A DNA stretch of 64,000 nucleotides from assembly GCA_963705155.1 (NCBI GenBank), contig CAVPJC010000014.1:136705-200704 (forward strand), in the 5' to 3' direction. A model generated the notes under the pieces. The model had not been told where the DNA came from, did not search any database, and was given only the letters and a program-made list of their open reading frames with translations. A program made the position numbers and the translations under genes. Below are positions 1 through 35,102 of the stretch, piece after piece (the stretch's first letter is position 1; each line of letters opens with the position of its first letter). This DNA comes from an uncultured Chloroflexia bacterium. Lineage in GTDB: Bacteria > Chloroflexota > Anaerolineae > Anaerolineales > UBA4823.

Positions 1-856
1 CAATGTTGTTACCGGGCCGCGGGATGCTGCTGAAGAAATGGGGGATGAGCTTATTTCTAATCCAAAAGTTAAGGCAATCAGCTTTACGGGATCCTCTGCA
101 ACCGGACGGCATCTAGCCGAAAAAGCCGGTCGTTATTTGAAAAAGATTTTTCTGGAGTTGGGAGGTAAAAATCCACTGATCATCCTGGCGGACGCCGATA
201 TGGAGCGCGCGGTTAATGCTGCTACCTTCGGTCGCTTTTTGCACCAGGGGCAAATTTGTATGTCTGTCGAGAAAATCATTGTTGAAGCCTCCGTCTGTGA
301 TGAGTTCACACAGCGGTTCCTGGCGAAAGTCAAGACCTTGCATGCCGGCAATCCACATGAGCCAGCCAATATTATCGGTCCGGTGATTAACCAACGGCAG
401 TTGGAAAAAATTCATAGCCACGTGATCGATGCCCAAGAGAAGGGGGCAACAGTTCTGGTCGGAGGCAACTATGAAGGTCTGTTCTATTCACCCACCGTAT
501 TAACGAACGTCACCCCGGATATGGCTGTTTACCAGGAAGAAACTTTTGGCCCGGTTGTACCCATCATTGTGGTTCAAGATGTTGAAGACGCCATCCGGGT
601 GGCCAACGATACTATCTACGGTCTATCAGCTGGAGTAATCACACAAGACGAAGAAAAAGGTTTGTATGTCGCCAGTCAGCTTGAATCTGGAATGGTGCAT
701 GTGAACGATGCGCCAGTGTATGACGAGCCCCATATGCCTTTTGGTGGCGTCAAAGCGAGTGGTATTGGAAGGCACGGCGGTAAGGCTTCTATCGAGGCGT
801 TCACCGAACTGCGATGGATTTCTTTGGAGCGCGGGGGCAGACAGTATCCTTTCTAG
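1..856 (+). CDS. Aldehyde dehydrogenase, aromatic-aldehyde (benzaldehyde/vanillin DH)-like; 5'-truncated by window edge
   Basis: ORF open from window start. FTGS, LELGGKNP, FLHQGQICMS (catalytic Cys), EETFGP and PFGGVKASG motifs. Confidence 0.9.
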   Translation, partial: NVVTGPRDAAEEMGDELISNPKVKAISFTGSSATGRHLAEKAGRYLKKIFLELGGKNPLIILADADMERAVNAATFGRFLHQGQICMSVEKIIVEASVCDEFTQRFLAKVKTLHAGNPHEPANIIGPVINQRQLEKIHSHVIDAQEKGATVLVGGNYEGLFYSPTVLTNVTPDMAVYQEETFGPVVPIIVVQDVEDAIRVANDTIYGLSAGVITQDEEKGLYVASQLESGMVHVNDAPVYDEPHMPFGGVKASGIGRHGGKASIEAFTELRWISLERGGRQYPF

Positions 857-946
857 GAAAATCATTTGTGGATCTTCGAGACCACCTCACAGCATTCGCC
901 GTGTTTTCTATGCGAATTTTTTGATCTTACAACCAGGAGATTTTAA

Positions 947-2245
947 ATGGAAACAAACTTTTTAGATCCATTCATTGAGAACTCTTGAAAGAGAGGCTTT
1001 GACCCAGATACAACTTAAAAAATTCCAGATGATGTTGAGCCATGTTCTGGATAAGAGTTCATTCTACCGTAAAAAATTTCTTGACGCTGGCTTTCGCAGG
1101 GCAGAAGATGTACGTACTGTTGATGATTATCGCCGGTTGCCATTTACAACAAAGGCAGAGATATCGATTGACCAGGCGTCTCATCCCCCTTATGGAACGA
1201 ACCTGACTTATCCGATGGAACAGTACATCCGTATTCATCAGACCTCAGGTACCACTGGTGAGCCGCTGCGATGTCTTGACACCGAGGAAAGCTGGAACTG
1301 GTGGGCTCGCTGCTGGGCGAATGTATATCGCGCTGCTGGCGTTACCTCTCTCGACCGAATCTTTCTTGCTTTCTCTTTCGGACCATTCATTGGATTTTGG
1401 AGCGCTCACGAGGGAGCTCGTCTGATTAAAGCATTAGCTGTGCCAGGCGGTGGGATGTCATCTTATCAACGGGTGAAAGCGATTCTGGTAAACGATATCT
1501 CCGTATTGGTTTGCACGCCTACCTATGCACTGCATCTGGCAGAAGTAGCGGAGCAAGAAGGTTTGGATATCAAAGGATCGAATGTTCGCATCACCATTCA
1601 TGCTGGTGAACCTGGTGCAAGTATCCCGGCGACGAAAGAACGAATTGAGACCCTTTGGGGAGCGCGTTGTTATGACCACGCCGGCGCAACCGAAGTGGGC
1701 GCGTGGGGGTTCGAATGCCAGGCGCAATCGGGATTGCATGTTAATGAAGGTGAGTTTATTTTTGAAATCATCGATCCTGTAACTGGAGAACAAGCCACCG
1801 AGGAGAACTCGTCATTACCAATCTGGGCAGGATTGGAATGCCGATCATTCGTTACCGGACTGGTGATAAAGTAAAACTTTCATCCGAGCGTTGTGAGTGT
1901 GGAAGAACCTACCGGATGTTAGACGGCGGGATCATTGGGCGTGTGGATGATGTATTGATCATTCGCGGTGTTAATGTTTTCCCAAGTGCCATCGAAGGTT
2001 TTGTGCGCCAGTTCCCAGAGGTCAGTGAGTTTGCTGTTGATATTTTCCGGCGGGAACAGCTGGATGAGATGGAAATCCGTCTGGAGGTTCATGGTGGAGA
2101 ACCCGAAGAGGTGGCAAAAGCCGTGGCGAAGGAGATTCGAAATGGCCTCGGTATGCGCATCGCGGTCAGGCCAGTACCTTATGGCACTTTGCCGCGTTTT
2201 GACCTAAAAGCACGCCGGATAAACGATCACCGCTATAAAAAGTAA
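947..2245 (+). CDS. Phenylacetate-CoA ligase (PaaK)-family adenylating enzyme; two frameshifts (~978, ~1800)
   Basis: AGGAG RBS then ATG at 947. HQTSGTTGEP, HAGEPG, DHAGATE, MPIIRYRTGD and GRVDDVLIIRGVNVFP are split over ORFs 975-1874 and 1838-2245. Confidence 0.85.
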
Positions 2246-2277
2246 TCGCTTTTTGGAGGTTGTTCCTGGAGAACACG

Positions 2278-2526
2278 ATGAACATTGAATTAACAGTTGA
2301 GAAGTATATTTTGACCGAATTACACCTGGGAAAAAGGACAAAGATCGGACTCGATGAGTCTCTCGTTGGCTCAGGAATTCTGGATTCGCTGACCTTACTG
2401 CAATTGATTGCCTTCCTGGAAGAGCAATACCAGGTAAAGTTTGAAGATCAAGACATTAATCCTGAATATTTTCGATCAATCAACGCGATTAAAACGTTCA
2501 TCGAGCAAAAATTACGGAAATCCTGA
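2278..2526 (+). CDS. Acyl carrier protein 1
   Basis: 82 aa with GILDSL phosphopantetheine Ser motif and a GGAG RBS before ATG 2278. Confidence 0.88.
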   Translation: MNIELTVEKYILTELHLGKRTKIGLDESLVGSGILDSLTLLQLIAFLEEQYQVKFEDQDINPEYFRSINAIKTFIEQKLRKS

Positions 2527-2545
2527 ATTTATTTTGGGAGTATCT

Positions 2546-4294
2546 ATGATTTTGGCACACATAAACCAGACACTACAAGCCAAGATATTCGAACGCCTTG
2601 AAAAGGATCCCACCCGAAAAACAATTATGTTTTATAACGCAAATCGGGGATCGAACTGGTATAGTTTTGAGGGTTTGTACCAGTCTGCGAGTGGTTACGC
2701 ACAACTTTTGTTGGATTCTGGGCTGGGCAAGGGAGGTGTATGTATCATTGTGCTTCCCAGCGGCGAACTCTCTGCAATGTTGTTAACTGCCACTCTGTTA
2801 TTGGGAGGAGTGCCCTTACTTGTTGCACCTCCTTCACTACAGGCAGAGGGTGCTTTTTCCAGCCTATTAAATATCATCGAGAGAATCATTGGGAAAACCA
2901 GGCCTGATATCGTTGTTCTGCCTGATTCAATGGCGGAAATGCGAAAAGGCATTCGCAGCATCAAAGGAAAACCGCGTCGTATTTTTACAGAAGGCGAGGT
3001 GACACCCATTTATGGGGCAAAAATCCCGATCACAGTGCCTGGAGAAGATGATATTGCCGCTATGCAATTGACATCAGGAACGACAGGGTTTCCACGAGTA
3101 TGTGTCTGGAAACAGAGAAATGTAATCGCAGCATTAGATGGGATGTCTGCTGCGATGGATATTTCGGAGTATGACACCTGTCTGAATTGGACACCCTTAT
3201 ATCACGATATGGGTCTGGTAAATAATTTCTTCACAAGCGTTACCAGGGGTGTGCCATTAGTAATGTTGAACCCAAATGAGTTCGTCAAAGATCCCTCCCT
3301 CTGGCTGCGAAGTCTGTCTGAAACTGGTGCAACGGTAACCTGGTCACCGAATTTTGGTTTTGCAATTACTGCCCAGCGTGTTAAGGACAGAGACCTTGAA
3401 GGCGTACGATTAGACCAGGTTCGTGGTTTCTGGAATGCGGCAGAGAAAATCCACTATGAAACAATGAAGGCTTTTCACAAGAGATTTGAGGCTTACGGTG
3501 TTCGTTACGAAGCTCTCAAGACAAATTTTGGTTGTGCTGAGAATATCGGTGGAGCAACATTTAGCGATCCAAAGGGAGCCTTTTTGGTGGAACACCTGGA
3601 TCGTAAATCATTCCTCGAGTCTGGCGTTGCCAATCCGGTGGAAAACTCGAGCGGGGAAGGGGAAGTAGTTTCAATCGTCGGCGCAGGAAAGCCGCACCCT
3701 GGTATTCGTATCAGCATCCTGTCCAAAAAAGGTAAACAACTTCCGGATGGATGCATAGGTGAACTTGCTTTGGATACACCTTCGCGTATGCAAGGCTATC
3801 TGAATGATGCACGGGCAACCCGCCGGGCGTTATTTGGAAAATACTTGCGCACCGGAGATATGGGTTACATGCGTGGTGACCAGTTCTTTTGGGTTGGGCG
3901 TGTCAAAGAACGGATCACTGTGCGAGGTGTAAAGCTTGACCCTAGTGACTTTGAAAGGATTTTGCTGCAGATTCCCGGGCTGCGGCACGGTAATTTTGCA
4001 GCCTTTGGTGTCGACGATGAGAAACTGGGGACTCAGCGTATTGTTCTTGTTTCGGAAGTACGCAATTCAAACGAGAGAAACCCGGATGAAATTTCATCGG
4101 ACATCCGTAACCGGGTGTTTCTACAATTGGGGGTCAATATCAATGATGTGGTCCTGGTTAACCCAGACACACTTACCAAAACATCAAGTGGAAAGAGACG
4201 ACACCGCTTCTTCCGTAAGTTATATCTGGAAGGCAACCTGGAGGAATTCAGGTGGCTCCCCGCCAGCGTGAAAGACACACATTCAGGCAGCTAG
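2546..4294 (+). CDS. Fatty acyl-AMP ligase (FAAL)-like adenylation enzyme
   Basis: QLTSGTTGFP, WTPLYHDMGL, WSPNFGF, LRTGDMG and KTSSGK motifs. Directly follows an ACP. Confidence 0.85.
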   Translation: MILAHINQTLQAKIFERLEKDPTRKTIMFYNANRGSNWYSFEGLYQSASGYAQLLLDSGLGKGGVCIIVLPSGELSAMLLTATLLLGGVPLLVAPPSLQAEGAFSSLLNIIERIIGKTRPDIVVLPDSMAEMRKGIRSIKGKPRRIFTEGEVTPIYGAKIPITVPGEDDIAAMQLTSGTTGFPRVCVWKQRNVIAALDGMSAAMDISEYDTCLNWTPLYHDMGLVNNFFTSVTRGVPLVMLNPNEFVKDPSLWLRSLSETGATVTWSPNFGFAITAQRVKDRDLEGVRLDQVRGFWNAAEKIHYETMKAFHKRFEAYGVRYEALKTNFGCAENIGGATFSDPKGAFLVEHLDRKSFLESGVANPVENSSGEGEVVSIVGAGKPHPGIRISILSKKGKQLPDGCIGELALDTPSRMQGYLNDARATRRALFGKYLRTGDMGYMRGDQFFWVGRVKERITVRGVKLDPSDFERILLQIPGLRHGNFAAFGVDDEKLGTQRIVLVSEVRNSNERNPDEISSDIRNRVFLQLGVNINDVVLVNPDTLTKTSSGKRRHRFFRKLYLEGNLEEFRWLPASVKDTHSGS

Positions 4295-4311
4295 GAAAAT
4301 GACTTAATTCT

Positions 4312-5421
4312 ATGGCGAAACGGTTATTAATCCTGAATGGACTGGCGACGTTCGGTGTGGTTTTAAATCACGCCGCAAGCTGGGGTTTTATTGCAATGTT
4401 TTGGTGGACCGACCGTTATCGGGCTGTCAGTGTACCTAATTTTGACCAAATTGGGAGCGCGTCCTATTATGCTATGCGGTTCATCGAACAGTTAATCGCG
4501 TTTAGCGTACCGGCTTTCTTGTTTGTTTCCGGTTTTTTCGTGGCATTTGTTATCGGAAAAGAGAACTTGCTTTCCGGCTTTAAAATTGCAGGCAAGAGGA
4601 TCGGAACCCTGATCGTTCCTTATCTAATTTGGTCGGGGGTTATGTTCGGTTTCTCATACATTTTGGGTGCCAAATATTCGATCTTCCGATATATCAAAAT
4701 GCTGCTTGTCGGAGGTGCAGCAGATCCATACTACTACATCCCCCTGATCATCCAACTGTTCGCTCTCGCACCATTGTTTGTTTTAATCGCAAGAAACCAT
4801 TGGAAAGCATTACTTGCTTGTGGGATCGTGACACAATTCATTGTGCAAGGGATCCGTTACCCAATGATACTCGGGATGGACTCACCCCTATTAGTTTGGT
4901 TGATAAAACTGACACCCGGGTGGTTCTTTCCAACCAAAGTTATGTGGTTCATCCTGGGCATTGTGGTCAGTTTACATCTGGTGGCATTTAAGGAGTGGAT
5001 TTTTAAACTTCGATACGGCCTCCTTATAGGTTTGGTGGTTTTTCTGCTAGCGACTATGATCGAATGGGAAGTTTTGCTCCGAGCCTCGAATTCGGACTGG
5101 ATCCCATATTTTGATACTGTGTTGGATAGTGTCTATGCATTCTTCTTCATAACCACGTTTATCAACTTTAATCAGGTCGAATTACCAAAATCTCAGTGGT
5201 TAGCGGATCTGGGCGGGAAATCTTACGGGGTTTACCTGGTGCACACGATTGTCCTGATCGTATCAGCACGCTTGATATTCCACGTGGCGCCTTTTATTCT
5301 CGCATATCAAATTATTTTTCAGCCCATATTAATTGCCTTAGGTCTTGGCTCTCCGCTAATCTTGATGATGTTGGTCAAAAAGTCGCCGGCGCGGATGTTT
5401 TATAGAACGCTCTTCGGCTAA
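4312..5421 (+). CDS. Membrane acyltransferase, acyltransferase-3 (OafA/YeiB-like) family
   Basis: VVLNH, VPAFLFVSGF, PYLIWS, YYYIPL and SYGVYLVH motifs. About 10 hydrophobic segments. Confidence 0.85.
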   Translation: MAKRLLILNGLATFGVVLNHAASWGFIAMFWWTDRYRAVSVPNFDQIGSASYYAMRFIEQLIAFSVPAFLFVSGFFVAFVIGKENLLSGFKIAGKRIGTLIVPYLIWSGVMFGFSYILGAKYSIFRYIKMLLVGGAADPYYYIPLIIQLFALAPLFVLIARNHWKALLACGIVTQFIVQGIRYPMILGMDSPLLVWLIKLTPGWFFPTKVMWFILGIVVSLHLVAFKEWIFKLRYGLLIGLVVFLLATMIEWEVLLRASNSDWIPYFDTVLDSVYAFFFITTFINFNQVELPKSQWLADLGGKSYGVYLVHTIVLIVSARLIFHVAPFILAYQIIFQPILIALGLGSPLILMMLVKKSPARMFYRTLFG

Positions 5422-5444
5422 AGCCACAGAAGGATCGAACGATT

Positions 5445-6440
5445 ATGCATAAAATATTAGTCACAGGTGGAGCTGGATTTATTGGCTCGCACGTCGTTCA
5501 AGAACTAATCTCCCGCGGCCATTCGGTTACCGTACTGGATGATTTGAGCGGCGGATTTACCGATAATCTGGTAAATGGCGTAAATTTCGTTCAAGGATCG
5601 ATCACCGATGTTGAGTTGGTGGATGAATTATTCAAACAAAGCCAGTTTGATTATGTTTATCATCTGGCAGCATATGCCGCTGAGGGTCTCAGTCATTTCA
5701 TCAAGCGGTTTAATTACACAAACAATCTAATTGGCAGCGTCAATTTAATTAATGCAGCAATTAATACAGGTGTCAAGTGTTTTGTATTTACGTCTTCCAT
5801 CGCGGTGTATGGGGCCACTCCTGAGCTGCCGATGACCGAAGAAACACAACCACACCCTGAGGATCCTTATGGTATTGCAAAACTAGCCGTTGAGCAGGAG
5901 CTTCGGGTCTGCAAGGATATGTTTGGTCTTGATTACATCATTTTTCGGCCTCATAATGTGTATGGTGAGCGCCAGAATATCGGAGATAAATATCGAAATG
6001 TTGTCGGAATTTTTATGAACCAAATCTTGCAGGGTAAACCCATGACGATCTTTGGAGATGGTGAGCAAACCAGGGCTTTCAGTTATATCGGAGATGTAGC
6101 TCCAATTATTGCCGAAGCGGTGGAGGTGCATGATGCGTATAACCAAATCTTCAACATTGGCGCTGATCAGCCTTTTAGTGTGAACGAGTTAGCGACAAAC
6201 GTTGCCCTTGCAATGGATACACAACCAAACATTGTGCACTTACCAGCCAGAAATGAAGTGCAAAATGCGTATTCATCCCACGACAAGGTGAGACGAATGT
6301 TTGGAGATCGAAGCCCAACGACATTGGAACAAGGATTAGATCGCATGGCAGCGTGGGTTAAAAGTCATGGCGCCAGGGAGAGCCACAAATTTGGTGATAT
6401 TGAGATCATCAAAAATTTCCCTCCGGGTTGGCTGTCTTGA
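5445..6440 (+). CDS. NAD-dependent nucleotide-sugar epimerase/dehydratase
   Basis: TGGAGFIGS, FTSS and YGIAK (YxxxK) extended-SDR motifs. Confidence 0.92.
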   Translation: MHKILVTGGAGFIGSHVVQELISRGHSVTVLDDLSGGFTDNLVNGVNFVQGSITDVELVDELFKQSQFDYVYHLAAYAAEGLSHFIKRFNYTNNLIGSVNLINAAINTGVKCFVFTSSIAVYGATPELPMTEETQPHPEDPYGIAKLAVEQELRVCKDMFGLDYIIFRPHNVYGERQNIGDKYRNVVGIFMNQILQGKPMTIFGDGEQTRAFSYIGDVAPIIAEAVEVHDAYNQIFNIGADQPFSVNELATNVALAMDTQPNIVHLPARNEVQNAYSSHDKVRRMFGDRSPTTLEQGLDRMAAWVKSHGARESHKFGDIEIIKNFPPGWLS

Positions 6441-6452
6441 AAGGCGTCTGAT

Positions 6453-7361
6453 ATGACCAGTCCCCTGGTAATAACTGTAATCTTAAATACAAACCGAAGA
6501 GAGGATACGCTGGCGGTGCTTGATTCTTTGTCCAAGGGCGATTATCCAAATCATCAGATCATGGTTTTGGATAACGCATCTTCGGATGGTTCAGTTCAGG
6601 CCATCCGAGAACGATTCGCCTCTGTTCAAATCATTCCAATCCTTGAGAACCGGGGATACGCCGGTAACAACAATGTTGGCATTGAAGCTGCCTTAGCACA
6701 GGGGGCAGAATGGGTATTTGTTTTGAATGAAGATACAATTCTTGCATCCGATTGCATTCGTAAACTGGTTGAGGCAGGCGCGAGTATGCCTGAAGTGGGT
6801 ATTGTGGGGCCTATGGTTTATCATCACAGCGAGCCAACCGTCATTCAATCAGCTGGAGGTGTTATCAATTCGAAATGGCAGACCTGGCATGCAGGGCAAA
6901 ATGAAGTTGACCACGGACAATTTCCAGAAATACGCCAGGTGGATTGGTTGTCGGGTTGTGCAATTATGGTTCGTCGTGGAGTAATCGAACAGGTGGGGAT
7001 GCTTGATGTGCGTTTCTTTTATTATTTTGAAGAGACTGAGTGGTGTCTTCGCTCTCGGAATGCTGGTTGGAAGATTTTGCATGTTCCACAGGCTCATTTG
7101 TGGCACAAAGGTGTGCAAAAAAATTATACACCTGGTGCAAATGTCACTTACTATGCCACGCGCAACAGGTTTCTTTTATTTTCGAAACACAAAGCCCCAA
7201 TAATTGCCTGGTTGATCGCGATCTGGGAAACCGCACGGACATTATTTAGTTGGAGTATACGCCCAAAGTGGCGTGATATGCGCGACCATCGCGATGCCAT
7301 GTGGCAGGGGATGATGGATTTTATCGGAAAGCGGTGGGGTATGCGCGGTGCATTGAGATGA
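6453..7361 (+). CDS. Glycosyltransferase family 2
   Basis: DNASSDGS, NRGYAGNNNVG, LNEDT, and FFYYFEETEWC motifs. Confidence 0.92.
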   Translation: MTSPLVITVILNTNRREDTLAVLDSLSKGDYPNHQIMVLDNASSDGSVQAIRERFASVQIIPILENRGYAGNNNVGIEAALAQGAEWVFVLNEDTILASDCIRKLVEAGASMPEVGIVGPMVYHHSEPTVIQSAGGVINSKWQTWHAGQNEVDHGQFPEIRQVDWLSGCAIMVRRGVIEQVGMLDVRFFYYFEETEWCLRSRNAGWKILHVPQAHLWHKGVQKNYTPGANVTYYATRNRFLLFSKHKAPIIAWLIAIWETARTLFSWSIRPKWRDMRDHRDAMWQGMMDFIGKRWGMRGALR

Positions 7362-8404: not shown

Positions 8405-8406
8405 CC

Positions 8407-9573
8407 ATGCATATACTTTTTTTATCCCGCTGGTATCCTTATCCACCGTCCAATGGCTCGAAAATCCGGGTTTACAATCTTCTGCGAGGTTTAGGTAAGG
8501 AACACAGCGTAACCCTATTTTCCTATTTTCAGCCAGAAGAAGGGCTGCCAGATCTTAATGCTATGAAAGAATGGTGCACTCATGTGGAGGTACTTCCTTA
8601 CAGGAGTTTTCGACCCAACAGCATGCATGCCTGGGCTGGTTTTTTTAGCAGCACCCCTCGAGCTTACCTCGATACCTTTTCCGCGGAATTTAGGGACAAA
8701 ATAATTAGCCTGCTTCAGGAATTTAAATACGATCTTGTTATTGCTTCACAAATTGACACGGCGGGATACGGTCGATATCTAAAGGGTATCCCAGCTATCT
8801 TTGAAGAGGTAGAAGTTAGTCATATTTATGAACGATACCATCATGCGACAAACATCATCAGCCGGATCAGAAGTGGAATGACCTGGGCGAAGCATCGCCA
8901 ATATTTGCTTAAATTGTTCAAGTATTACAAAATATGTACTGTTGCCTCTGGAAATGAAAAACAGCTCCTTGACGGTATTGTACGAACTGAGCCGAAGATC
9001 GAAGTAATCCCTAACTGTATTGATGTTAAGACCTATGCAGGAGATTGGGGGCAGCCAGACCCAAATATTATCGTGTTTACCGGATCGTTCCGTTATAATC
9101 CAAACTACGAAGGGGCGTTATGGTTTGTAAACCATGTGTTACCTTTGGTGCAGAGAGAATATCCTGGTATTCAGCTGGCGATCACTGGAGATCATGCGAA
9201 TAAGCTATTTCCTGCTGGAGCAGGTATTCGCCTGACTGGATTCGTTGATGATATCCGGCCATGGTTGGCGAAGGCTTGGTGCAGTATCGTTCCAATCTTT
9301 ACAGGCGGTGGGACAAGACTTAAAATTTTAGAGGCTATGGCGGCGGGAACACCAGTTGTTTCAACATCCAAAGGAGCAGAAGGATTGGATGCGCAGGATG
9401 GCGAACATTTGTTGATCGCTGATTCGCCAACCGATTTTGCAAAAGCAATCATTGAATTGCGGAAGAATGAGCAATTGCACACAGAAATTGCCGTAAATGC
9501 ACGCAATCTCGTTCTTAAATCGTTCGATTGGCCGATCATTATGAACCGTTTTTCGGAAATTATCCGATTATGA
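8407..9573 (+). CDS. Glycosyltransferase family 4 (resembles PEP-CTERM/EpsH1-associated sugar transferases)
   Basis: PYPPSNGSKIR N-terminus, FTGSFRYNPN, and GGGTRLKILEAMAAGTPVVST motifs. Confidence 0.9.
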   Translation: MHILFLSRWYPYPPSNGSKIRVYNLLRGLGKEHSVTLFSYFQPEEGLPDLNAMKEWCTHVEVLPYRSFRPNSMHAWAGFFSSTPRAYLDTFSAEFRDKIISLLQEFKYDLVIASQIDTAGYGRYLKGIPAIFEEVEVSHIYERYHHATNIISRIRSGMTWAKHRQYLLKLFKYYKICTVASGNEKQLLDGIVRTEPKIEVIPNCIDVKTYAGDWGQPDPNIIVFTGSFRYNPNYEGALWFVNHVLPLVQREYPGIQLAITGDHANKLFPAGAGIRLTGFVDDIRPWLAKAWCSIVPIFTGGGTRLKILEAMAAGTPVVSTSKGAEGLDAQDGEHLLIADSPTDFAKAIIELRKNEQLHTEIAVNARNLVLKSFDWPIIMNRFSEIIRL

Positions 9574-11003
9574 AATCATTAAGTTCGAAATCAATGTTGT
9601 TCATTACCCAATTGGTAAAAACAGAAGAGGGGCAGCGACCGGCGTGGCTCCGACCGATTATTGTTATCGCCGTTCTGTTCCTTAGTGTTGCCCTTTCGGT
9701 ACTTGGTAAGCCAAAAATCAGTCTCCTCGCAGGGGCTGCGATTTTTGGAATACCGGTTGTATTTGCATTTTTACGTTGGCCTCAAGTCGGATTAGCTGCA
9801 TTGGTAGTGGCTAGTTTTCTAATACCATCCCCTTTCGGTCCAGGTAGTGCGGGTGCGGTCATGCACTCGGCAATTTTGCTCACCGTTTTGCTCACCCTGC
9901 TGTGGATGCTTGATATGGTCGTGCGGGAGAAACGAATCTCGATAAATGCGTCAATTACCAATTCGCCGCTGATAGCGTTAATGATCGTAGCGATCATTGC
10001 TTTAATTAATGGCCAGATCAATTATTATTATCTGGCAAGATTGGCTTCTCCCATAGCTCAGATCAGTGGATTAGCGGTATTTCTTCTCTCTATAGCTGCT
10101 TACTTCCTTGGAGCCAACCAAATTAAAACCCAGGCCTGGCTCGAAAAGCTCACCTGGCTCTTCCTGGCTATTGGCGCAATATATATGATTGGGCGCCTTA
10201 CCCCTCTTACAGAGCGGTTCATCCGCCCAATATTCCAATATGGATCAGATGCAAGTCTGTTCTGGACCTGGATGGTAGCTCTCGGCGCCAGTCAGGGGCT
10301 GATCAACACCAGGCTGGACAAACGATGGCGAGTTGCCCTGGGATTATTAACTGCAACCACAATCTATGTAGCCTTGATTTAAAATTACTTCTGGAAATCT
10401 GGTTGGTTGCCAGCATTGGCCGCACTTGGTGTCATTATCTTCCTGGGTTTTCCAAAGTTGAGACCACTTGTTATTGTCGGGGCTTTAGTGGTAGCAATTT
10501 TTTCGATAACTGACTCACAAGTTGTTGTTTCAAGTGAGGATTACAGCATCCTGACCCGGGTCGAAGCCTGGAAGCTGATTTGGAAGATCATCCAGGCAAA
10601 CCCGATCCTCGGATTAGGTATGTCAAATTATTACTGGTATACTCCATTGTTTCCAATTTTGGGGTATGCGGTGAATTACAATTCACACAATAATTACATC
10701 GATATCGTTGCACAAACTGGTTTGGTTGGTTTGGCGTGTTTCATCTGGTTTCTCTTGGCCTCTGGTTGGTTAGGACTCCGTTTAAAGGATGCGGTTCCAG
10801 ATGGGTTTGCCAGGGCATTTGTTATCGGTGCAATGGGCGGATTGGCTGGAATCATTGCCAGCGGGATGTTAGGAGATTGGGTACTACCGTTTGTTTACAA
10901 TGTTGGCTTATATGGAATGCGTTCCAGTATATTGAGTTGGTTTTTCCTGGGCTGCCTGGTTTTTTATGAGCAGACCTATTTACATGGTCGAAAAACCGGA
11001 TAG
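9570..11003 (+). CDS. O-antigen ligase/Wzy_C-family membrane protein; in-frame TAA at 10380 (probable miscall of CAA)
   Basis: ORFs 9528-10382 and 10407-11003 are in the same frame. TRVEAW..PILGLG..SHNNYIDIVAQTGLVG Wzy_C signature. Confidence 0.82.
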
Positions 11004-11932
11004 TGCGTGTAGCCAATATGGAGCTATCGATCATTATTGTCAGTTGGAATACCTGTGATCTTTTACAGGCGTGCCTGGAATCGGTTTACCGGAATGCCCC
11101 AGACTGTCTGTTTGAAGTTTTGGTTGTGGATAACGCATCGAAAGATGGTAGTCTTGAAATGGTGCGTGGCCGGTTTCCCCGGGTTGTTGTACTATCCAAC
11201 ACGCGTAATTTGGGTTTTGCCTCAGCAAATAACCAGGCGATTGCTATTTCGTCGGGCAGGTATATTCTGCTTTTGAATTCTGATACGGTTGTTATGCCTG
11301 GTGCTCTGGAGAAATTGATTGAATTTTTTGAGCAACATCCACGAGCAGGGGCAGCCGGAGGGCATTTACTCAATCCGGATGGAAGTTTACAGTATTCTTG
11401 TTCTCCATCACCCACTTTGAGAAGTGAGGCCAGACGATTGCTGCGCATGCCCGGGGTTCGCACAGATGGATATTATCCGATGGAAACCTGGGATCTTCAC
11501 AAGTATCATGAAGTTGATGTTTTATTAGGTGCATGTTTAATGCTTCGTAAAGAAGTCCTGAACACGGTTGGAGTATTGGATGAAACATATTTTATGTATT
11601 CGGAAGAAGTAGATCTTTGCCGGCGAGTTCAGTTGGCTGGATGGAAACTTTTCTGGGTCCCGAACGCTTTTGTTTTGCATCATGGCGGGCAGAGTACTGG
11701 TCAGATCGCTGACAAAATGTTCTTGCAGCTCTACAAGAGCAAATTGCATTTTATTCGTAAGCATTATGGATCTTTGCATGGTTTCCTTTATAAAATCCTC
11801 CTGGGGGTTGTGTCACTAAGCCGAATCTCCCTTGGAGCAGTGGTGTGGTTTGAGAGCGCAGAGCGCCGTAAGACCCATTTGAGTCTTGTTAAAAGTTACC
11901 GGAATTTGTTGTTCTCTTTGCCTAAGATTTAA
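11003..11932 (+). CDS. Glycosyltransferase family 2 (WbbL-like)
   Basis: SIIIVSWN, DNASKDGS, NLGFASANN, LLLNSD and YFMYSEEVDLC motifs. Confidence 0.92.
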   Translation: MRVANMELSIIIVSWNTCDLLQACLESVYRNAPDCLFEVLVVDNASKDGSLEMVRGRFPRVVVLSNTRNLGFASANNQAIAISSGRYILLLNSDTVVMPGALEKLIEFFEQHPRAGAAGGHLLNPDGSLQYSCSPSPTLRSEARRLLRMPGVRTDGYYPMETWDLHKYHEVDVLLGACLMLRKEVLNTVGVLDETYFMYSEEVDLCRRVQLAGWKLFWVPNAFVLHHGGQSTGQIADKMFLQLYKSKLHFIRKHYGSLHGFLYKILLGVVSLSRISLGAVVWFESAERRKTHLSLVKSYRNLLFSLPKI

Positions 11933-11990
11933 TCTCAACAGCATTGAGAAAATGATGTTTGATGGAAATGATCTAATAGGAGTAATTTCG

Positions 11991-12236
11991 ATGTCTATTG
12001 AAGAGCAAATCAAGGAATATATTGCTAAGAACCTGCTATTTTCAGATAATGGGTTTCCATACCCTGACGATGCCTCATTTCTCGAAGAGCGAATTGTTGA
12101 TTCTATGGGCGTGATGGAATTGGTGGCATTCGTTGAGGAGAAATTTAAAATTCGGGTTGATGATATGGACGTAACACCGGACAATTTTGACTCAATCAAT
12201 CGGTTGGCGGGCTTCATCCGCAGAAAATCATTGTAG
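11991..12236 (+). CDS. Acyl carrier protein 2
   Basis: AGGAG RBS then ATG 11991. IVDSMGVMELV phosphopantetheine motif and PDNFDSI tail. Confidence 0.9.
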   Translation: MSIEEQIKEYIAKNLLFSDNGFPYPDDASFLEERIVDSMGVMELVAFVEEKFKIRVDDMDVTPDNFDSINRLAGFIRRKSL

Positions 12237-12271
12237 GTTGGGGATTTATTCCCTTTATTTTTAACGATTGT

Positions 12272-13831
12272 ATGAGCAAAGATATGAAGCTTGTCCAAAA
12301 TTTTCTTGAATACAGCGCAGAACGTTTGCCAGATAAGGTCGCCCTGGTTTGTGATCAACGGCGAGTTACGTATGCCGAACTAAACTCACAAGCAAATCGT
12401 CTGGCAAACGCCATGCGTGCTTGCGGTCTGAAGCGAGGCGACCGGGTAGCATTGTATTTGAACAACACCGTCGAGCTCGTGGTTGGGATCTTTGCAGTGC
12501 TCAAGGCTGGCGGAGTATTCGTGCCAGTCAACCCCACCACAAAAAAGGACAAGCTTGCATATATTCTTAACAATTGCCGCGCCGCCGGCTTGTTATTCGA
12601 GACACGCCAAAGAGACCTGGCTCACGGTATTGTTGAGCGTGTGTCGTCACTCCGGTTTATTGTTGTATGTGGAGTCGCCAATCCGACAGAGAATTCCTTG
12701 CATTCCAACCTGTGCAAGTCTCAGGATTTTAATGAAATTCAGTCTGAATATTCATCGGAACGACCGGTTTGCTCGAATATCGATCTTGATTTAGCCTGTC
12801 TGATCTATACTTCTGGAACAACAGGTGATCCAAAAGGCGTCATGTCAGACCATTCGAATGTCATATTTGCGGTAGATTCAATCACCTCATATCTTGAGAA
12901 TATCGAAGATGATATTGTGATTGATACATTACCCTTATCCTTTGATTATGGCTTGTACCAGTTGTTGATGGTTTTTAAATTCGGTGGACGGTTAGTGTTA
13001 GAGAGAGGTTTTGCTTATCCGGCGCAGATACTAAAGCGTATTCAGGAGGAGCGGGTTACCGGATTTCCTGGTGTGCCAACGATATTTGCTGTTTTGGTAC
13101 GTATGGATTTGAGTGATTTTGATTTATCAAGTCTGCGCTACCTTTCTAACACGGCTGCAGCCCTGCCTCCAAGTCATATCCTTGAATTAAGATCGAAGTT
13201 TCCAATGGTAACTATTTTTTCCATGTATGGCTTGACCGAAACCAAACGCACACTTTATCTACCTCCAGACCAGATTGACAAAAAACCCGGGTCGGTTGGC
13301 ATAGCCATACCGGGAACCGAGGTATGGATTGAAGATGAGACTGGTCAACGTCTTAAACCTGGCGAGGTAGGAGAGCTGGTCGTGCGCGGCAGACATGTCA
13401 TGCGGGGGTACTGGGAAGCCCCTGAAGCAACTGCACAACGTTACCGCCCAGGACCAATACCCGGAGAGCGCTTATGTTACAGCGGGGATTTGTTCCGTCT
13501 GGATGATGAAGGCTATTTTTATTTTGTCAGCCGCAAAGATGATATCATCAAGACAAGGGGGGAGAAAGTTGCTCCAAAGGAAGTTGAAACAATATTATAC
13601 GGCTTGCAGGGCATCCTTGAGGCAGCCGTTGTAGGCCTGCCTGATCCAATCCTTGGTCAGGCGGTTAAAGCTTTTCTCGTTGTTGAACATGGGGTAACCA
13701 TGAGTGAAGCACAGGTTCTGGCATACTGCCGCGCGAATATGGAAGATTTCATGGTACCAAAATTTATAGAATTTCGGGATGAGCTGCCGAAAACATCATC
13801 AGGAAAGATAAAAAAGACCGATCTCACTTGA
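12272..13831 (+). CDS. AMP-dependent acyl-CoA/acyl-ACP ligase
   Basis: YTSGTTGDPKG, PLSFDYG, MYGLTE, SGD and PKTSSGKI motifs. Confidence 0.92.
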   Translation: MSKDMKLVQNFLEYSAERLPDKVALVCDQRRVTYAELNSQANRLANAMRACGLKRGDRVALYLNNTVELVVGIFAVLKAGGVFVPVNPTTKKDKLAYILNNCRAAGLLFETRQRDLAHGIVERVSSLRFIVVCGVANPTENSLHSNLCKSQDFNEIQSEYSSERPVCSNIDLDLACLIYTSGTTGDPKGVMSDHSNVIFAVDSITSYLENIEDDIVIDTLPLSFDYGLYQLLMVFKFGGRLVLERGFAYPAQILKRIQEERVTGFPGVPTIFAVLVRMDLSDFDLSSLRYLSNTAAALPPSHILELRSKFPMVTIFSMYGLTETKRTLYLPPDQIDKKPGSVGIAIPGTEVWIEDETGQRLKPGEVGELVVRGRHVMRGYWEAPEATAQRYRPGPIPGERLCYSGDLFRLDDEGYFYFVSRKDDIIKTRGEKVAPKEVETILYGLQGILEAAVVGLPDPILGQAVKAFLVVEHGVTMSEAQVLAYCRANMEDFMVPKFIEFRDELPKTSSGKIKKTDLT

Positions 13832-13859
13832 AAGTGCGATAGCATAAAAAGGTGACAAT

Positions 13860-15878
13860 ATGTGCGGTATTACCGGTACTTACAATTTAAATAAATCCCA
13901 TCCAATTGCAGAAGCAGATATCCGGCAGATGCTTGCTATGCTCAGGCATCGCGGTCCCGATCAATTTGGTATCTATCTGGATGATGAAATTGGGATGGGT
14001 AGTGCACGTCTGAGCATCATTGATTTAAGCGGGGGTCAACAACCCATCTCCAATGAAGATCAAACAGTATGGATTGTGTTTAATGGAGAAGTCTTTAATT
14101 ATGTGGAATTGCGGCCGGTGCTCGAAAAGGCCGGGCATCGGTTTACGACGAATACTGATACTGAAGTGGTCGTGCATCTTTACGAGGAATATGGCCCGGC
14201 TTGTTTAAATTACCTGAATGGGCAGTTTGCGATTGCCCTGTGGGATGTCACCCGGAAAACTCTTTTTCTTGCACGTGACCGGCTTGGCATTCGCCCCCTA
14301 TTCTATAGCGTAGTAGACGGGGCATTGCTTTTTGCTTCTGAAATTAAAGCCATTCTTGCAGATCGTCGTATCCATGCGGAGATGGATCCCATCTCATTGG
14401 ACCAGGTTTTCACCTATTGGAGTACGCTCTCACCTCGAACGGCTTTCAAGGGTGTGTTCGAAATACCTGCCGGGCATTATATAATCGCAACCAATGGGCA
14501 AACCAAGGTGGAACGTTATTGGAATGTCCTGTTTGAGCCTGAAGAAAACAGGCGAAATTTCCCTGGAACTCCAGGCGATGATCATATCGATGATGTTCTT
14601 GAAGAGTTTTGCACATTACTGGTGGATGCAACGCAAATTCGCCTGAGAGCAGATGTGCCGGTAGGGGCTTATCTGAGTGGAGGTCTTGATTCTTCGACGA
14701 CCGCTGCCATTATCCGTAATTACACCAATAACCGGTTGGATACATTCTCAATTGCGTTCAGTGATCTGGAGTATGATGAAAGCGGTTTCCAGATCCAGAT
14801 GGCAAAACTGTTGGGGACAGATCACCACGTCGTCTATGCTACACACGAAGAGATCGGGCGTGTGTTTCCGGATGTCATCTGGCATACCGAAACCCCATTG
14901 ATGAGAACCTCGCCGGCTCCGCTCTACTTGTTATCCAGGTTGGTGCGCGAGAACAACTACAAAGTAGTTATGACAGGGGAGGGGGCGGATGAATTTCTCG
15001 GGGGGTATAACATTTTCAAAGAAACTATGATTTGGCGCTTTTGGTCCAAGCAACCCGACTTACAGCTTCGCCCCCTGCTTCTGCGTAAATTGTATCCCTA
15101 TATTGCGCAACTTTCTAAGAGTGGAGATTCTATATTTACGGGCGTTTTTTGGTAAGGGATTGAGCCAGGTTGACAATCCCTATTATTCCCATATCATCCG
15201 TTGGGAGGATACAGCGCGGACGAAGCGATTTTTCTCGAACGAACAACAACAGGCGATTGAGCAGCGAAAAATTGAAAACCTTCCCGTGCCTATTCCTTCT
15301 GATTTTATGAAATGGCACCCATTACATCGGGCGCAATACCTGGAGATTACAGTTTTTCTGTCGCAATACTTATTGTCGTCACAAGGCGACCGTGTGGCAA
15401 TGGCCAATTCGGTTGAGGGGCGTTTCCCATTTCTGGATTATCGAGTCGTGGAGTTTTGTAACCGCCTCCCGCCAGGGTTAAAATTGCGCGGCCTGACAGA
15501 AAAATATCTACTCAAACGTCTTGCCCGCCGATGGCTTCCGGATGATATCTGGCGGAGACCGAAGCGCCCATACCGAGCGCCTATCCATCGAAGCTTCTTT
15601 AACCCTGTGGCAGCGGAATATGTGTATGACCTACTCTCCGACGATGCCCTGCTCGATGCCGGATTATTCAAACCAGCAGCAGTACGCCAGCTGGCAAGTA
15701 AGGTTGAAAATGGAGCGAGTTTAGCGAAACCGATGATATGGCTCTGGTTGGTATTATCTCATCACAATTGGTCTACCAGAAATTTGTCAAAAGTTATCAA
15801 GCCGAGGCGCCACTTTCAATTGACGATGATGTTAAGGTATGCGTCGGTCACGCAAAACGAACAGGAGCTGTAGCATGA
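13860..15878 (+). CDS. asnB: Asparagine synthase (glutamine-hydrolysing)-like amidotransferase; frameshifts ~15135 and ~15721
   Basis: MCGI N-terminal nucleophile, HRGPD, LSGGLDSS, TGEGADE and SVEGRFPFLD. The restored C-terminus (ETDDMALVG...) ends at TGA 15878, overlapping the next ATG. Confidence 0.88.
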
Positions 15879-16843
15879 CATTCAGTAAAGCGATTATAAA
15901 AATTGATCCAGAAGTTGAGACAATCCGGATCATTGATATGCTGAGGAAAAATGTGCGCCAGGTGCTTCGCAGGCAGGGAGCTGTTTTGGGCGTGAGTGGT
16001 GGTGTTGATTTATCGGTGGTACTGGCTCTTTGCTGCCGTGCTTTTGGTACAGAAAGAGTGATTGCCCTGATGCTTCCAGAGAAGGATTTTGACCCGGAAT
16101 CAGAACGGCTTGCTCGACTGGTTTGTACTACCTTTGGTATTGAGCCAGTTCTAGAGGTGATAACGCCTGTTCTGGACGGTTTCGGGTGTTATCCGCGCCG
16201 GGACGAAGCTGTGCGAAGGGTTTTTCCAGAGTTCCAGGCGGAGGCGGGTTATAAAATGAAAATTGGACTGCCGCAAAATTTACTGGATGAAGATACCCTG
16301 AACGTCTTTCATCTGACAATTATTGCACCAGATGGTTCGGAGAAAAGCCAACGGTTGCCCTTGAAAGAGTTTTACCAGATTGTTGCAGCCTCGAATTTTA
16401 AGCAACGTACTCGTATGTCCATGCTCTACTACCATGCAGAGCTTCACAACTATGCCGTCATCGGGACCGCCAATAAAAACGAACACGATCAGGGCTTCTT
16501 TGTGAAATATGGGGATGGCGGCGTCGACGTTCGTCCGGTTATCCATTTATTCAAGACCCAGATTTATCAATTGGCAGAATATCTGGGTATACCGGAAGAG
16601 ATCCGCATGCGGCCTCCAACCACCGATACCTACAGCGCTCCGAGCACACAGCAGGAGTTCTTTTTCAGGCTTCCATTTGAAACAATGGATGTGTTATGGT
16701 ATGCACAGGAGCATGAGATCCCCATGGCGGAAGTTGCGAGTGCGATGGGTCTTTCCGAAATCCAGGTACAGCGAGCATATAATGACTTCACACGGAAGGC
16801 ACGTACCACAGATTATTTGCGAATACCTCCCTTGGATATTTGA
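15875..16843 (+). CDS. nadE: NH3-dependent NAD+ synthetase-like N-type ATP pyrophosphatase
   Basis: SGGVD(L)S, NFKQRTRM, GTANKNE, GFFVKYGDGG and PTTD motifs. Operonic with ACP/ligase/asnB, so probably not the housekeeping copy. Confidence 0.75.
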   Translation: MTFSKAIIKIDPEVETIRIIDMLRKNVRQVLRRQGAVLGVSGGVDLSVVLALCCRAFGTERVIALMLPEKDFDPESERLARLVCTTFGIEPVLEVITPVLDGFGCYPRRDEAVRRVFPEFQAEAGYKMKIGLPQNLLDEDTLNVFHLTIIAPDGSEKSQRLPLKEFYQIVAASNFKQRTRMSMLYYHAELHNYAVIGTANKNEHDQGFFVKYGDGGVDVRPVIHLFKTQIYQLAEYLGIPEEIRMRPPTTDTYSAPSTQQEFFFRLPFETMDVLWYAQEHEIPMAEVASAMGLSEIQVQRAYNDFTRKARTTDYLRIPPLDI

Positions 16844-19291: not shown

Positions 19292-19333
19292 AATATCCCT
19301 GTCTCTCTACCCACAGAGGAGAGACAGGGTATT
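19292..19333 (+). terminator. Strong stem-loop after the LamG gene (terminator or mRNA-stabilising hairpin)
   Basis: CCCTGTCTCTC (19297-19307) pairs with GAGAGACAGGG (19319-19329). The T-tail is poor. Confidence 0.5.
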
Positions 19334-28144: not shown

Positions 28145-28160
28145 AGACTGGAAGGTGCTT

Positions 28161-28550
28161 ATGACCGTGAGAGGTATACGCGGAGCAACGGTAGCTATTG
28201 AAGATCACGGATCGGCAATTTTGGGTGCTACCCGGGATCTTTTGCAAGCGATATTGGCCGCTAACCCGGTACATCCCGATGATATTGCCAGCGTTTTCTT
28301 TACAGTCACCGAAGACATCAGTTCGACCTATCCGGCGCTGGCGGCGCGAGAGCTGGGTTGGCAAAACGTTCCGTTATTATGTTCGCGCGAAATTCCGGTT
28401 CCTGGCAGCCTTCCATTATGTATCCGTGTGTTAATCCATTGGAATACCGACTTACCCCAAAAAGCCATTCAACACGTTTACCTAGGTGAGGCTGCAATAT
28501 TAAGACCGGATTTAACCCCAGACAAATCTCAGATCGAATTGGAGGATTGA
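28161..28550 (+). CDS. aroH: Chorismate mutase, AroH (Bacillus) type
   Basis: VRGIRGAT, FTVTED, YPALAAR, CIRVL and HVYLGEAAILRPDL motifs. Confidence 0.93.
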   Translation: MTVRGIRGATVAIEDHGSAILGATRDLLQAILAANPVHPDDIASVFFTVTEDISSTYPALAARELGWQNVPLLCSREIPVPGSLPLCIRVLIHWNTDLPQKAIQHVYLGEAAILRPDLTPDKSQIELED

Positions 28551-28553
28551 GCC

Positions 28554-32707: not shown

Positions 32708-32727
32708 TCTATGGAGTATGACATTAC

Positions 32728-33891: not shown

Positions 33892-33905
33892 ATTAGAAGA
33901 GGCCT

Positions 33906-35075: not shown

Positions 35076-35102
35076 ACAAGATAGCATAAGGCATATTTAT
35101 TC

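Follow-up and report, generated by a model that had tools for sequence, protein, structure and literature searches.

Comparative gene content of a Chloroflexota glycan locus suggests carrier-dependent acylation of a surface polysaccharide by AT3-family proteins

We analyzed a 64,000-nucleotide stretch of DNA (the window) from an uncultured Chloroflexia bacterium (assembly GCA_963705155.1, contig CAVPJC010000014.1, positions 136,705-200,704). The window contains a polysaccharide locus in which genes for small acyl carrier proteins (ACPs), adenylating ligases, and membrane acyltransferases of the AT3 family lie among glycosyltransferase genes. Its gene content suggests an undescribed way to put unusual (aromatic, amide-bearing, and pyrrole-type) acyl groups onto a cell-surface polysaccharide. 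The original prediction, made from the sequence of the first 16.8 kb, was that acyl groups are built on the carriers and handed to the AT3 proteins. We found that this is the best available, if unproven, reading of the locus, and we put the probability that carrier-bound acyl groups from these modules are passed to dedicated AT3 proteins for glycan decoration at roughly 0.55. What favors it is synteny, AT3 clades that track module type, the presence of FAAL-type ligases with either an AT3 or MBOAT and DltD-like genes, and the lack of any other off-loading enzyme in the scanned gene runs. All of this comes from comparison of sequences.

In the mechanism that we propose, modules of an adenylating enzyme and a carrier protein would make acyl thioesters in the cytoplasm. 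This AT3 subfamily would then take the acyl group from the phosphopantetheine arm of the carrier, instead of from acyl-coenzyme A (acyl-CoA), and place it on the sugar polymer. The logic would be that of the Dlt pathway, with an AT3 protein replacing the MBOAT. A prolyl-type module would likely donate a dehydroprolyl or pyrrolyl group. Module A would probably supply a chorismate-derived 4-hydroxybenzoyl-type aryl group, possibly along with a FAAL-activated acid. Module B would likely donate an amidated (amino)acyl group, and would probably be served by the second AT3 protein of the window (AT3-2).

The first 16.8 kb of the window is one co-directional gene run on the + strand, as seen in lists of open reading frames (ORFs). 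Genes were identified by scanning ORFs with Pfam and NCBIfam profiles and comparing bit scores with the curated cut-offs. The genes, in window coordinates, are:

2..856, + strand, aldehyde dehydrogenase (ALDH), last 284 codons, with the gene start upstream of the window at position 19363 of L006 (the 20 kb preceding window base 1); PF00171, 348.5 bits
975..2245, + strand, in two frames (975-1874 and 1838-2245), PaaK-like adenylate-forming ligase; AMP-binding_C_2, 67.3 bits, NCBIfam PaaK models best
2260..2526, + strand, likely start 2278, ACP1, a small carrier protein; PP-binding, 25.7 bits
~2546..4294, + strand, ORF opening at 2441, FAAL-like acyl-AMP ligase; PRK09192, 292.4 bits, cut-off 600
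4312..5421, + strand, AT3-1, a 369-residue stand-alone membrane acyltransferase; PF01757, 75 bits
5445..6440, + strand, NAD-dependent sugar epimerase/dehydratase (SDR); PF01370, 199 bits, and GalE-like, 172 bits, below cut-off
6453..7361, + strand, GT2 glycosyltransferase; PF00535
7358..8404, + strand, ORF opening at 7301, AT3-2; PF01757, 88.3 bits
8407..9573, + strand, GT1-type (GT4 fold) glycosyltransferase; PF13692, 94 bits
9528..11003, + strand, Wzy_C / O-antigen-ligase-like membrane protein; PF04932, 55.8 bits on the second piece
11003..11932, + strand, GT2 glycosyltransferase; PF00535, 102 bits
~11991..12236, + strand, ORF opening at 11886, ACP2, a small carrier protein; PP-binding, 23.4 bits
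12272..13831, + strand, Module B AMP-forming ligase; PF00501, 320 bits, best NCBIfam model TIGR03098
13860..15878, + strand, in three frame segments, AsnB-type glutamine amidotransferase; GATase_7 and Asn_synthase, TIGR03108-like, below cut-off
15839..16843, + strand, NadE-like ATP-pyrophosphatase/amidating enzyme; PRK00876, 456 bits, cut-off 313

Every element named in the original prediction is present on the + strand in the ORF lists and the Pfam and NCBIfam scans: Module A (ALDH, PaaK-like ligase, ACP1, FAAL-like ligase, and AT3-1), Module B (ACP2, ligase, AsnB, and the NadE-like protein), and AT3-2 between them. Two of its labels had to be changed. The gene at 5445-6440, taken for a glycosyltransferase, encodes an NAD-dependent epimerase/dehydratase (PF01370). 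The ALDH, called an aromatic-aldehyde type, has no specific match to such enzymes; the top NCBIfam models for the partial protein are generic ones, for lactaldehyde and succinate-semialdehyde dehydrogenases, and all score far below their cut-offs. The claim that the run lacks ketosynthase and condensation domains held for the 18 + strand ORFs scanned within 1-16843, and none was found in the upstream + strand ORFs scanned. The scanned + strand ORFs of the gene run also contained no thioesterase and no further type of acyltransferase.

The glycan locus extends at least 20 kb upstream of window base 1. L006 (related loci are likewise given L numbers, and the other contigs of this genome C numbers) contains more glycosyltransferase genes, a sulfotransferase gene, and a second AsnB-like gene. 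It also contains genes for an acyl-CoA-dehydrogenase-family protein, an amino-acid adenylation enzyme, a 78-residue carrier protein, and two more AT3 proteins (one frame-broken), followed by a second DAHP synthase, a chorismate pyruvate-lyase-like protein (ChorLy), and the start of the ALDH. The best explanation is that the window holds the downstream two-thirds of a ~50 kb Wzy-type glycan biosynthesis locus in a Chloroflexota-like genome. This locus would be the richest case among the loci examined, with three different cassettes and four AT3 genes.

The four AT3 proteins score well above the PF01757 cut-off of 31 bits (75.0 for AT3-1, 88.3 for AT3-2, and 92.1 and 94.9 for the two upstream copies). 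They are the only AT3 genes in the genome. The proteins are stand-alone, ~369 residues long, of a size for 10 helices, and without an SGNH domain. A homologue search with AT3-1 gave 385 matches at E ≤ 1e-10 among 8000 scored candidates, with a family length of ~369 residues; the named matches are from Anaerolineales, Caldilineaceae, Chloroflexota, and Binatia. Longer, fused forms of the subfamily were not found among 6924 candidates, which is weak evidence. A tblastn search with AT3-1 against plasmids for characterized references gave two weak matches that were not useful.

We found that this AT3 subfamily adjoins carrier and ligase genes across related loci. An alignment-based AT3 scan of species-representative genomes gave 79 loci, and their six-frame ORFs were compared with the proteins of this locus; 35 metagenome loci were also compared. 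We then recorded the gene within 400 bp upstream of each of 142 AT3 ORFs (from the 79 genome loci and three metagenome loci). This was a carrier gene in 39 cases, another AT3 gene in 36, a PltA-like halogenase gene in 33, a FAAL gene in 3, a NadE-like gene in 2, a prolyl ligase gene in 2, and a Wzy, GT2a, or SDR gene in 1 each; it was unlabelled in 14, and 10 ORFs were at a contig edge. More than 3 kb lies upstream of the first AT3 gene in 56 of the 79 loci, and 40 of these 56 have a carrier gene within 3.5 kb upstream. Of the 16 that do not, the carrier gene is flanked by AT3 copies in 7, and Module B genes are close by in another 7. A carrier and a ligase were found somewhere in 57 of the 79 loci; 17 of the other 22 are loci of less than 15 kb that are cut by contig ends.

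The recurrent gene order is dehydrogenase, prolyl ligase, carrier, in some loci a halogenase, one to three AT3 genes, SDR, GT2, GT1, Wzy, GT2, and in some loci ACP2, ligase, AsnB, and NadE. A carrier of any type was found in 61/79 loci, the prolyl ligase in 49/79, GT2a (the orthologue of the GT2 at 6453-7361) in 49/79, an SDR after the AT3 genes in 44/79, the dehydrogenase in 36/79, the halogenase in 31/79, AsnB in 18/79, the Module B ligase in 17/79, the NadE-like gene in 13/79, and Module A in 1/79 (L074). The prolyl module is far commoner than Modules A and B. The three carrier types align without gaps, with 27-53% identity to ACP1, and an alignment of 16 carriers, with every module type represented, shows no variation at the Asp-Ser site.

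The AT3 proteins also group according to the module that they follow (FastTree, 146 rows, SH-like supports, no bootstrap). AT3-1 falls in a clade of five rows (support 99). Three of the others, in L097, L108, and L127, are each encoded directly behind a FAAL gene, and the fourth (L020) is cut by the contig edge and retains a FAAL remnant. AT3-2 falls in a clade of five rows (support 100) within a clade of 19 rows (support 99); 8 of the other 18 rows come from seven Module B loci (L053, L073, L081, L086 twice, L091, L094, and L095), and in L073 and L086 the AT3 gene directly follows NadE. The two upstream AT3 proteins are in clades that follow the carrier or the halogenase of the prolyl module. 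The gene order in L127 is DAHP synthase, ChorLy, PaaK, ACP, FAAL, AT3, SDR, AT3, and there is no prolyl module in the 9.9 kb upstream. Because L127 carries Module A without a prolyl module, the acid-making cassette before the AT3-SDR core appears to be exchangeable.

Nine loci of the AT3-2 clade have a gene for a ~425-residue DUF362 protein directly before the AT3 gene (L094 8714-9988 and L081 5893-7161 among them). These nine include the locus of Longilinea arvoryzae (L071).

We found that the subfamily has changed a motif that is associated with CoA binding. The R-X10-H motif (Arg14 of OafB) is termed absolutely conserved in AT3 proteins, and simulations of OafB put the motif Arg at the 3'-phosphate of CoA (Newman et al. 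2023, eLife 12:e81547). A single canonical AT3 protein, E. coli WecH, was aligned as the reference for R-X10-H; OpgC aligned too poorly to be used. At the position of the WecH Arg, none of 145 subfamily ORFs has Arg (0/145). The residue is Asn in 123, Ser in 12, Thr in 3, Met in 2, Leu in 2, and Pro, Ile, or Gly in 1 each; it is Asn in AT3-1 and Gly in AT3-2. The His of the motif, in the first transmembrane helix (TM1; the WecH His column, His25 of OafB), is kept in 145/145. Loss of the Arg fits a change of donor, because the phosphopantetheine arm on a carrier has no 3'-phospho-adenosine. The subfamily also has a conserved R-x-x-E-Q (R56, E59, and Q60 of AT3-1), which is not confidently placed relative to the RXXR on the cytoplasmic face of TMH3 in OafB.

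From these findings we infer a donor switch. The N-X10-H subfamily would have changed to an acyl-S-carrier donor, and would serve as a port that exports natural-product-type acids onto polysaccharides, with cassettes swapped in before matching AT3 clades. The acids might be chorismate-derived aryl, pyrrolyl or halopyrrolyl, and amidated aminoacyl groups. This fuller proposal stands, in our estimate, at even odds.

We also co-folded AT3-1 and ACP1, both as alignments. The pair scored 0.57, compared to 0.00 for the best of 3 controls, which is weak support for an interaction. At least 95% of contacts were shared between runs, and partner pLDDT was at least 76, with no interface given. In the benchmark, 7 of 80 solved complexes passed at scores of 0.60 or below, and so did both of the 2 mismatched pairs (of 110) that passed at all. 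Because mismatched pairs pass in this range, a pass at or below 0.60 is more often wrong than right unless the interaction was likely beforehand.

The module upstream of the window (a prolyl-carrier ligase, a carrier, and a prolyl-carrier dehydrogenase, followed by two AT3 genes) resembles those that make pyrrolyl groups. The nearest solved relative of the dehydrogenase is 4irn, annotated as 'prolyl-ACP dehydrogenase' (491 bits). Two more dehydrogenases from proline pathways reach 348 and 335 bits; those of the generic acyl-CoA type reach no more than 299. Its NCBIfam scores are 463.1 bits for PigA (cut-off 500) and 427.2 bits for RedW (cut-off 650). The top single-domain solved relative of the ligase is PltF, a proline-carrier ligase (326 bits), with other single domains at 234 or less; the 398 bits for LgrA are the sum of two domains. 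Ten pocket columns of the ligase, sampled by hand (two set one residue off), were identical in 45/50 rows, and a literature search for the ten-residue pocket code read by hand gave no match. The closest solved relative of the carrier is chain A of 6cxt, which we take to be the Bmp1 carrier domain, solved with its dehydrogenase. Together, the module looks like one that would convert proline to prolyl-S-carrier and then to dehydroprolyl- or pyrrolyl-S-carrier.

A flavin halogenase gene lies between the carrier and AT3 genes in 31 of the 79 loci (L074 459-1739, L043 7526-8866, and L077 7549-8883 among them). The nearest solved relatives of the halogenase are ChlB4, PltA, and 5buk (406-417 bits). 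Four loci (L026, L041, L049, and L058) have two copies. There is no halogenase gene at the locus of this genome, whose only relative of the enzyme, encoded on C13, is 32% identical. The cultured Bellilinea caldifistulae GOMI-1 has the common cassette in the order ligase, carrier, AT3, halogenase, AT3, AT3 (L077). When 400 further genomes of the phylum were sampled evenly, the prolyl ligase was found at E ≤ 1e-120 in 9. The prolyl cassette is thus widespread but sparse in the phylum.

Module A is a rare insert, and no cultured carrier of it was found. Orthologues of its FAAL-like ligase above 31% identity were absent from 30 relatives, and none was found at E ≤ 1e-110 in 400 other genomes of the phylum. 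Orthologues with 45-61% identity were found in 36 metagenome contigs. The FAAL ORF is visible in 35 of the 36. The closest solved relatives of the FAAL-like ligase are the FAALs 3pbk (171 bits) and 3kxw, although its score does not reach the curated cut-off of 600.

The suggestion in the original prediction that one acyl group might be aryl gained support from two genes just upstream of the window, those for ChorLy and a dedicated DAHP synthase. ChorLy matches PF01947 (56 bits, cut-off 22; the Rv2949c family) and scores 36 bits against the NCBIfam model for cyanobacterial chorismate lyase (cut-off 175). The dedicated DAHP synthase shares 68% identity with its housekeeping paralogue at 28814-29605. 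The proposed route from aldehyde to acid found no support. The ALDH gene is absent from the 8 other loci that have ChorLy next to PaaK (L074, L127, L113-L116, L118, and L117, where the contig ends right behind ChorLy), and the DAHP synthase is found in only one other Module A locus, L127. As every other Module A locus lacks the ALDH, the aryl acid of Module A would most simply be 4-hydroxybenzoate from chorismate and not an oxidized aldehyde.

Either the PaaK-like or the FAAL-like ligase may load ACP1. The two pieces of the PaaK-like protein score 150.9 and 89.7 bits against the best NCBIfam model (cut-off 700) and 135.1 and 82.6 bits against TIGR02155 (cut-off 646), so the curated score for PaaK is not reached. 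The best solved relatives of the L127 orthologue are the phenylacetate-CoA ligases 4r1l and 2y27 (~210-220 bits), and AjiA1 is at 102 bits. The closest relatives are true CoA ligases, and ChorLy and PaaK occur together in the 8 other loci. These findings might indicate that AT3-1 is CoA-dependent and aroyl-specific, with the PaaK-like enzyme making 4-hydroxybenzoyl-CoA or a similar aryl-CoA and the FAAL and ACP1 serving another step. We consider this improbable: the AT3-1 clade lies directly behind FAAL and not behind the PaaK-like gene, the subfamily is without the Arg placed at the CoA 3'-phosphate, and the solved relatives include AjiA1, presumably a PaaK-like enzyme that loads a carrier protein.

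Among the 35 FAAL loci, the AT3 gene is directly downstream of FAAL in 3, a PaaK-like gene is upstream in 4, and ChorLy follows FAAL in 6, with PaaK next in five and the contig of the sixth (L117) cut. The six loci with ACP, FAAL, ChorLy, and PaaK genes have a Wzx-like flippase gene, several sulfotransferase genes, and no AT3 gene within the flanks compared, which reach up to 10 kb on each side; this indicates that Module A can work without an AT3 protein. Their module lies among glycosyltransferase genes, and ChorLy belongs to the Rv2949c family, so Module A might instead supply a phenolic aglycone or primer for glycosylation, as in the case of the mycobacterial p-hydroxybenzoate derivatives and phenolic glycolipids. 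In that case there would be no ester decoration. However, a clade-specific AT3 gene comes straight after FAAL in the window, L097, L108, and L127, and the scanned ORFs contain no polyketide synthase. We give the primer explanation slightly less weight than an aroyl-CoA donor.

Other FAAL loci have a different membrane enzyme. An MBOAT gene and a carrier gene are upstream of FAAL in 8 of the 35 loci, and 5 of these also have a DltD-like gene. Many of the FAAL loci outside these groups are contigs of less than 5 kb. L101 (5264-11710) has MBOAT, carrier, DltD-like, B12/radical-SAM, and FAAL genes, a Dlt-like set. This genome also has, at C19:144641-151656, genes for an MBOAT (34% identical) and a carrier, with a FAAL-like piece. 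In L122 (5074-21662), a FAAL orthologue (620 bits) is beside a halogenase-like gene (416 bits) and a 949-residue ORF, with a 2910-residue ORF on the opposite strand; this context is different, possibly an assembly line.

The product of Module B, at a fair guess, would be an amidated (amino)acyl thioester. The best NCBIfam match of its ligase is TIGR03098 (489.6 bits, cut-off 592.35), and on the amino-acid adenylation model the ligase scores 276 bits (cut-off 317). The pieces of AsnB score 349.7 and 90.0 bits against TIGR03108 (cut-off 816.9). The closest solved relatives of the NadE-like protein are NH3-dependent NAD synthetases, and other loci also carry its gene alongside the remaining Module B genes (ACP2, ligase, and AsnB).

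Several observations weigh against transfer from carriers to AT3 proteins. No AT3 enzyme is known to draw on a carrier protein. The role of the lost Arg could be taken over by a conserved Arg-Arg pair that lies five or six residues ahead of the Asn. In two long loci (L071 and L090), 21 kb of sequence includes an AT3 gene but neither a carrier nor a ligase. The number of AT3 copies does not track that of modules; L051 has a single AT3 gene for two modules in the 21 kb compared. Of five genomes with Module B at the end of the locus, an AT3-2-like gene is right behind the module in one, 18-28 kb away in three, and absent from one. No dehydrogenase is in the flank of thirteen or fourteen loci that have the prolyl ligase or the halogenase; in five such genomes, the best dehydrogenase relative (50-51% identity) lies elsewhere. 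The six Module A loci without an AT3 gene belong here as well, as do the broken genes of this assembly, described below. The literature points the same way: the AT3 donor is treated as acyl-CoA in the available part of Newman et al. (2023, eLife 12:e81547), where the term 'acyl carrier' was not found, and AT3 enzymes use cytoplasmic acyl-CoA according to a 2026 preprint.

Our results might therefore indicate that these AT3 proteins are ordinary glycan O-acyltransferases that use acetyl-CoA (or succinyl-CoA), and that the modules make an N-acyl substituent, a lipid anchor, or a small molecule. This would agree with the mismatch between AT3 and module numbers, with Module A in six loci without an AT3 gene, and with the use of acyl-CoA by the described AT3 enzymes, as far as the available texts go. 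AsnB-type enzymes of glycan loci, such as WbpS, can amidate uronic acids without a carrier, which also counts in its favor. It would, however, leave carrier thioesters without an off-loading enzyme in conserved gene runs, and it explains neither why AT3 clades follow module type nor why 0/145 ORFs have the Arg set at the CoA 3'-phosphate. We regard it as unlikely, though less so than the two alternatives for Module A, and favor transfer from the carriers.

The locus has at least eight disrupted sites over ~48 kb, which include two in AsnB and others in the PaaK-like gene, Wzy, a GT1, an upstream AT3 gene, and the upstream AsnB-like gene. The PaaK-like gene has a single frame break at ~1793-1796, and the intact 443-residue orthologue in L074 aligns across it at residue 296. 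AsnB has two, at ~15125 and ~15722, with the segments placed by orthologues. An in-frame TAA interrupts the Wzy-like gene at 10380-10382; orthologues align through it without a gap, and the L042 orthologue has Glu there. The GT1 gene at 19332-20624 also has an in-frame TAA, where orthologues carry Gln. Orthologues align straight across every break in the locus. Both TAA stops lie in the same nine bases, TTGATTTAA (window 10374-10382 and 20178-20186), which may reflect a systematic base-calling error at one motif or coincidence.

We found similar breaks outside the glycan locus. In the same window, the genes for DAHP synthase (28554-29605), shikimate kinase/dehydroquinate synthase (35103-36675), and a PrsW protease (37351-38353) are split. 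Elsewhere, secA is spread over at least four open frames (C26:27559-31334) and a relative of class-I tRNA synthetases is in seven pieces (C13:127807-132504); rpoB and ileS are whole. Indel errors seem to be many in this assembly (26 contigs, estimated completeness 84.8%) and uneven by contig. Because secA and the tRNA synthetase, shikimate kinase, and DAHP synthase genes are broken too, errors in the assembled sequence are the likeliest cause of the breaks. The number of disruptions could instead mean that the frame breaks and stops are real, the locus is decaying, and the system is dead in this organism. Given the like state of genes outside the locus, the 50-73% identity that each segment keeps to orthologues in its own frame, and a completeness of only 84.8% for the 26 contigs, this is very improbable, and we rejected a pseudogenized locus as the principal explanation. 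Three runs of public reads contained 5-7% of sampled words, and contigs assembled from them (151-331 bases) did not cross a break site.

Downstream of Module B are further transferase genes, alongside the following:

16958-19234 of the window, directly after Module B, a 758-residue protein that has two concanavalin-like domains (Laminin_G_3) and ends in a hydrophobic C-terminal tail
23321-24832, a WcaJ-like initiating phosphotransferase
26108-27748, a Wzc-like tyrosine kinase

The Laminin_G_3 protein has weaker relatives in a few related loci (L020, L036, L068, and L072). The G+C content is 44-49% in the glycan locus (window 1-28000) and 48-55% in 28000-64000. A shikimate/aromatic amino-acid operon adjoins the locus (L006 17610-18659 and window 28155-36675). 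Pfam matches in this operon are to DAHP synthase, EPSP synthase, and shikimate kinase fused to dehydroquinate synthase; a prephenate-dehydrogenase-like ORF was read by eye only.

A literature search that missed most subscription journals and supplements found no paper describing carrier-dependent AT3 systems or pyrrolyl glycans. If our proposal is correct, two textbook systems would merge, O-acylation of glycans by AT3 proteins from acyl-CoA and Dlt-type acylation from a carrier through an MBOAT, and AT3 proteins would have a second class of donor. Polysaccharides with aromatic, pyrrole (sometimes halogenated), and amide-bearing esters would then be expected in a phylum that has received little study and abounds in sediments and sludge. 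Such systems could be found by a simple sequence marker, Asn in place of Arg in TM1 together with a neighboring carrier gene, and the modules would offer a modular means to attach chosen acids to exported glycans.

Parts of the locus resemble systems described elsewhere. TIGR03098 and TIGR03108, the ligase and amidotransferase of the XrtA/PEP-CTERM set, are the best or second-best models for the Module B ligase and AsnB. Both sets are in exopolysaccharide loci and both are uncharacterized, but Module B scores below the curated cut-offs and has the NadE-like protein as an extra partner. The mycobacterial p-hydroxybenzoate glycolipid genes share with Module A a PF01947 lyase (Rv2949c, which in mycobacteria is paired with the FAAL-type FadD22) near a FAAL-like ligase and a carrier. 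In contrast to that system, there is no polyketide synthase here, there is an extra PaaK-like ligase, and an AT3 gene is directly downstream. The type II nonribosomal peptide synthetase modules for pyrrole (PltF/PltL/PltE/PltA, PigI/G/A, and Bmp) include the best solved relatives of the upstream ligase, carrier, and dehydrogenase, and of the halogenase found in other loci. Here, however, the module is in a polysaccharide locus, AT3 genes follow it, and neither a thioesterase nor a downstream assembly line is present. The aminocoumarin antibiotics offer a precedent for moving a pyrrolyl group onto a sugar.

The membrane enzymes share with known AT3 O-acyltransferases (OafA/OafB, WecH, OatA, IcaC, and Oac) the Pfam family, size, the TM1 His, and a setting in glycan loci. 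They differ in that the Arg of R-X10-H is replaced in 145/145, the genes are set among those for carriers and ligases, and the proposed donor is an acyl-S-carrier. With the Dlt pathway (DltA, DltC, the MBOAT DltB, and DltD; D-alanylation of teichoic acids) the locus shares an ATP-dependent ligase that loads a small stand-alone carrier, with a polytopic membrane acyltransferase beside it. Here, ACP1 is encoded with the PaaK-like and FAAL-like ligases, ACP2 with the Module B ligase, and the upstream carrier with its own ligase. Each of the three carriers matches DltC weakly, and FAAL orthologues elsewhere sit with MBOAT, ACP, and DltD-like genes. The + strand ORFs scanned in the gene run of the window include no MBOAT, DltD, or DltX, and the AT3 fold differs from that of MBOAT proteins (Newman et al. 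2023, eLife 12:e81547). Compared to Dlt, then, the membrane enzyme is an AT3 (PF01757), the acids would be other than D-alanine, and the target would be a Wzy-type glycan; we infer both the acids and this acceptor from gene content.

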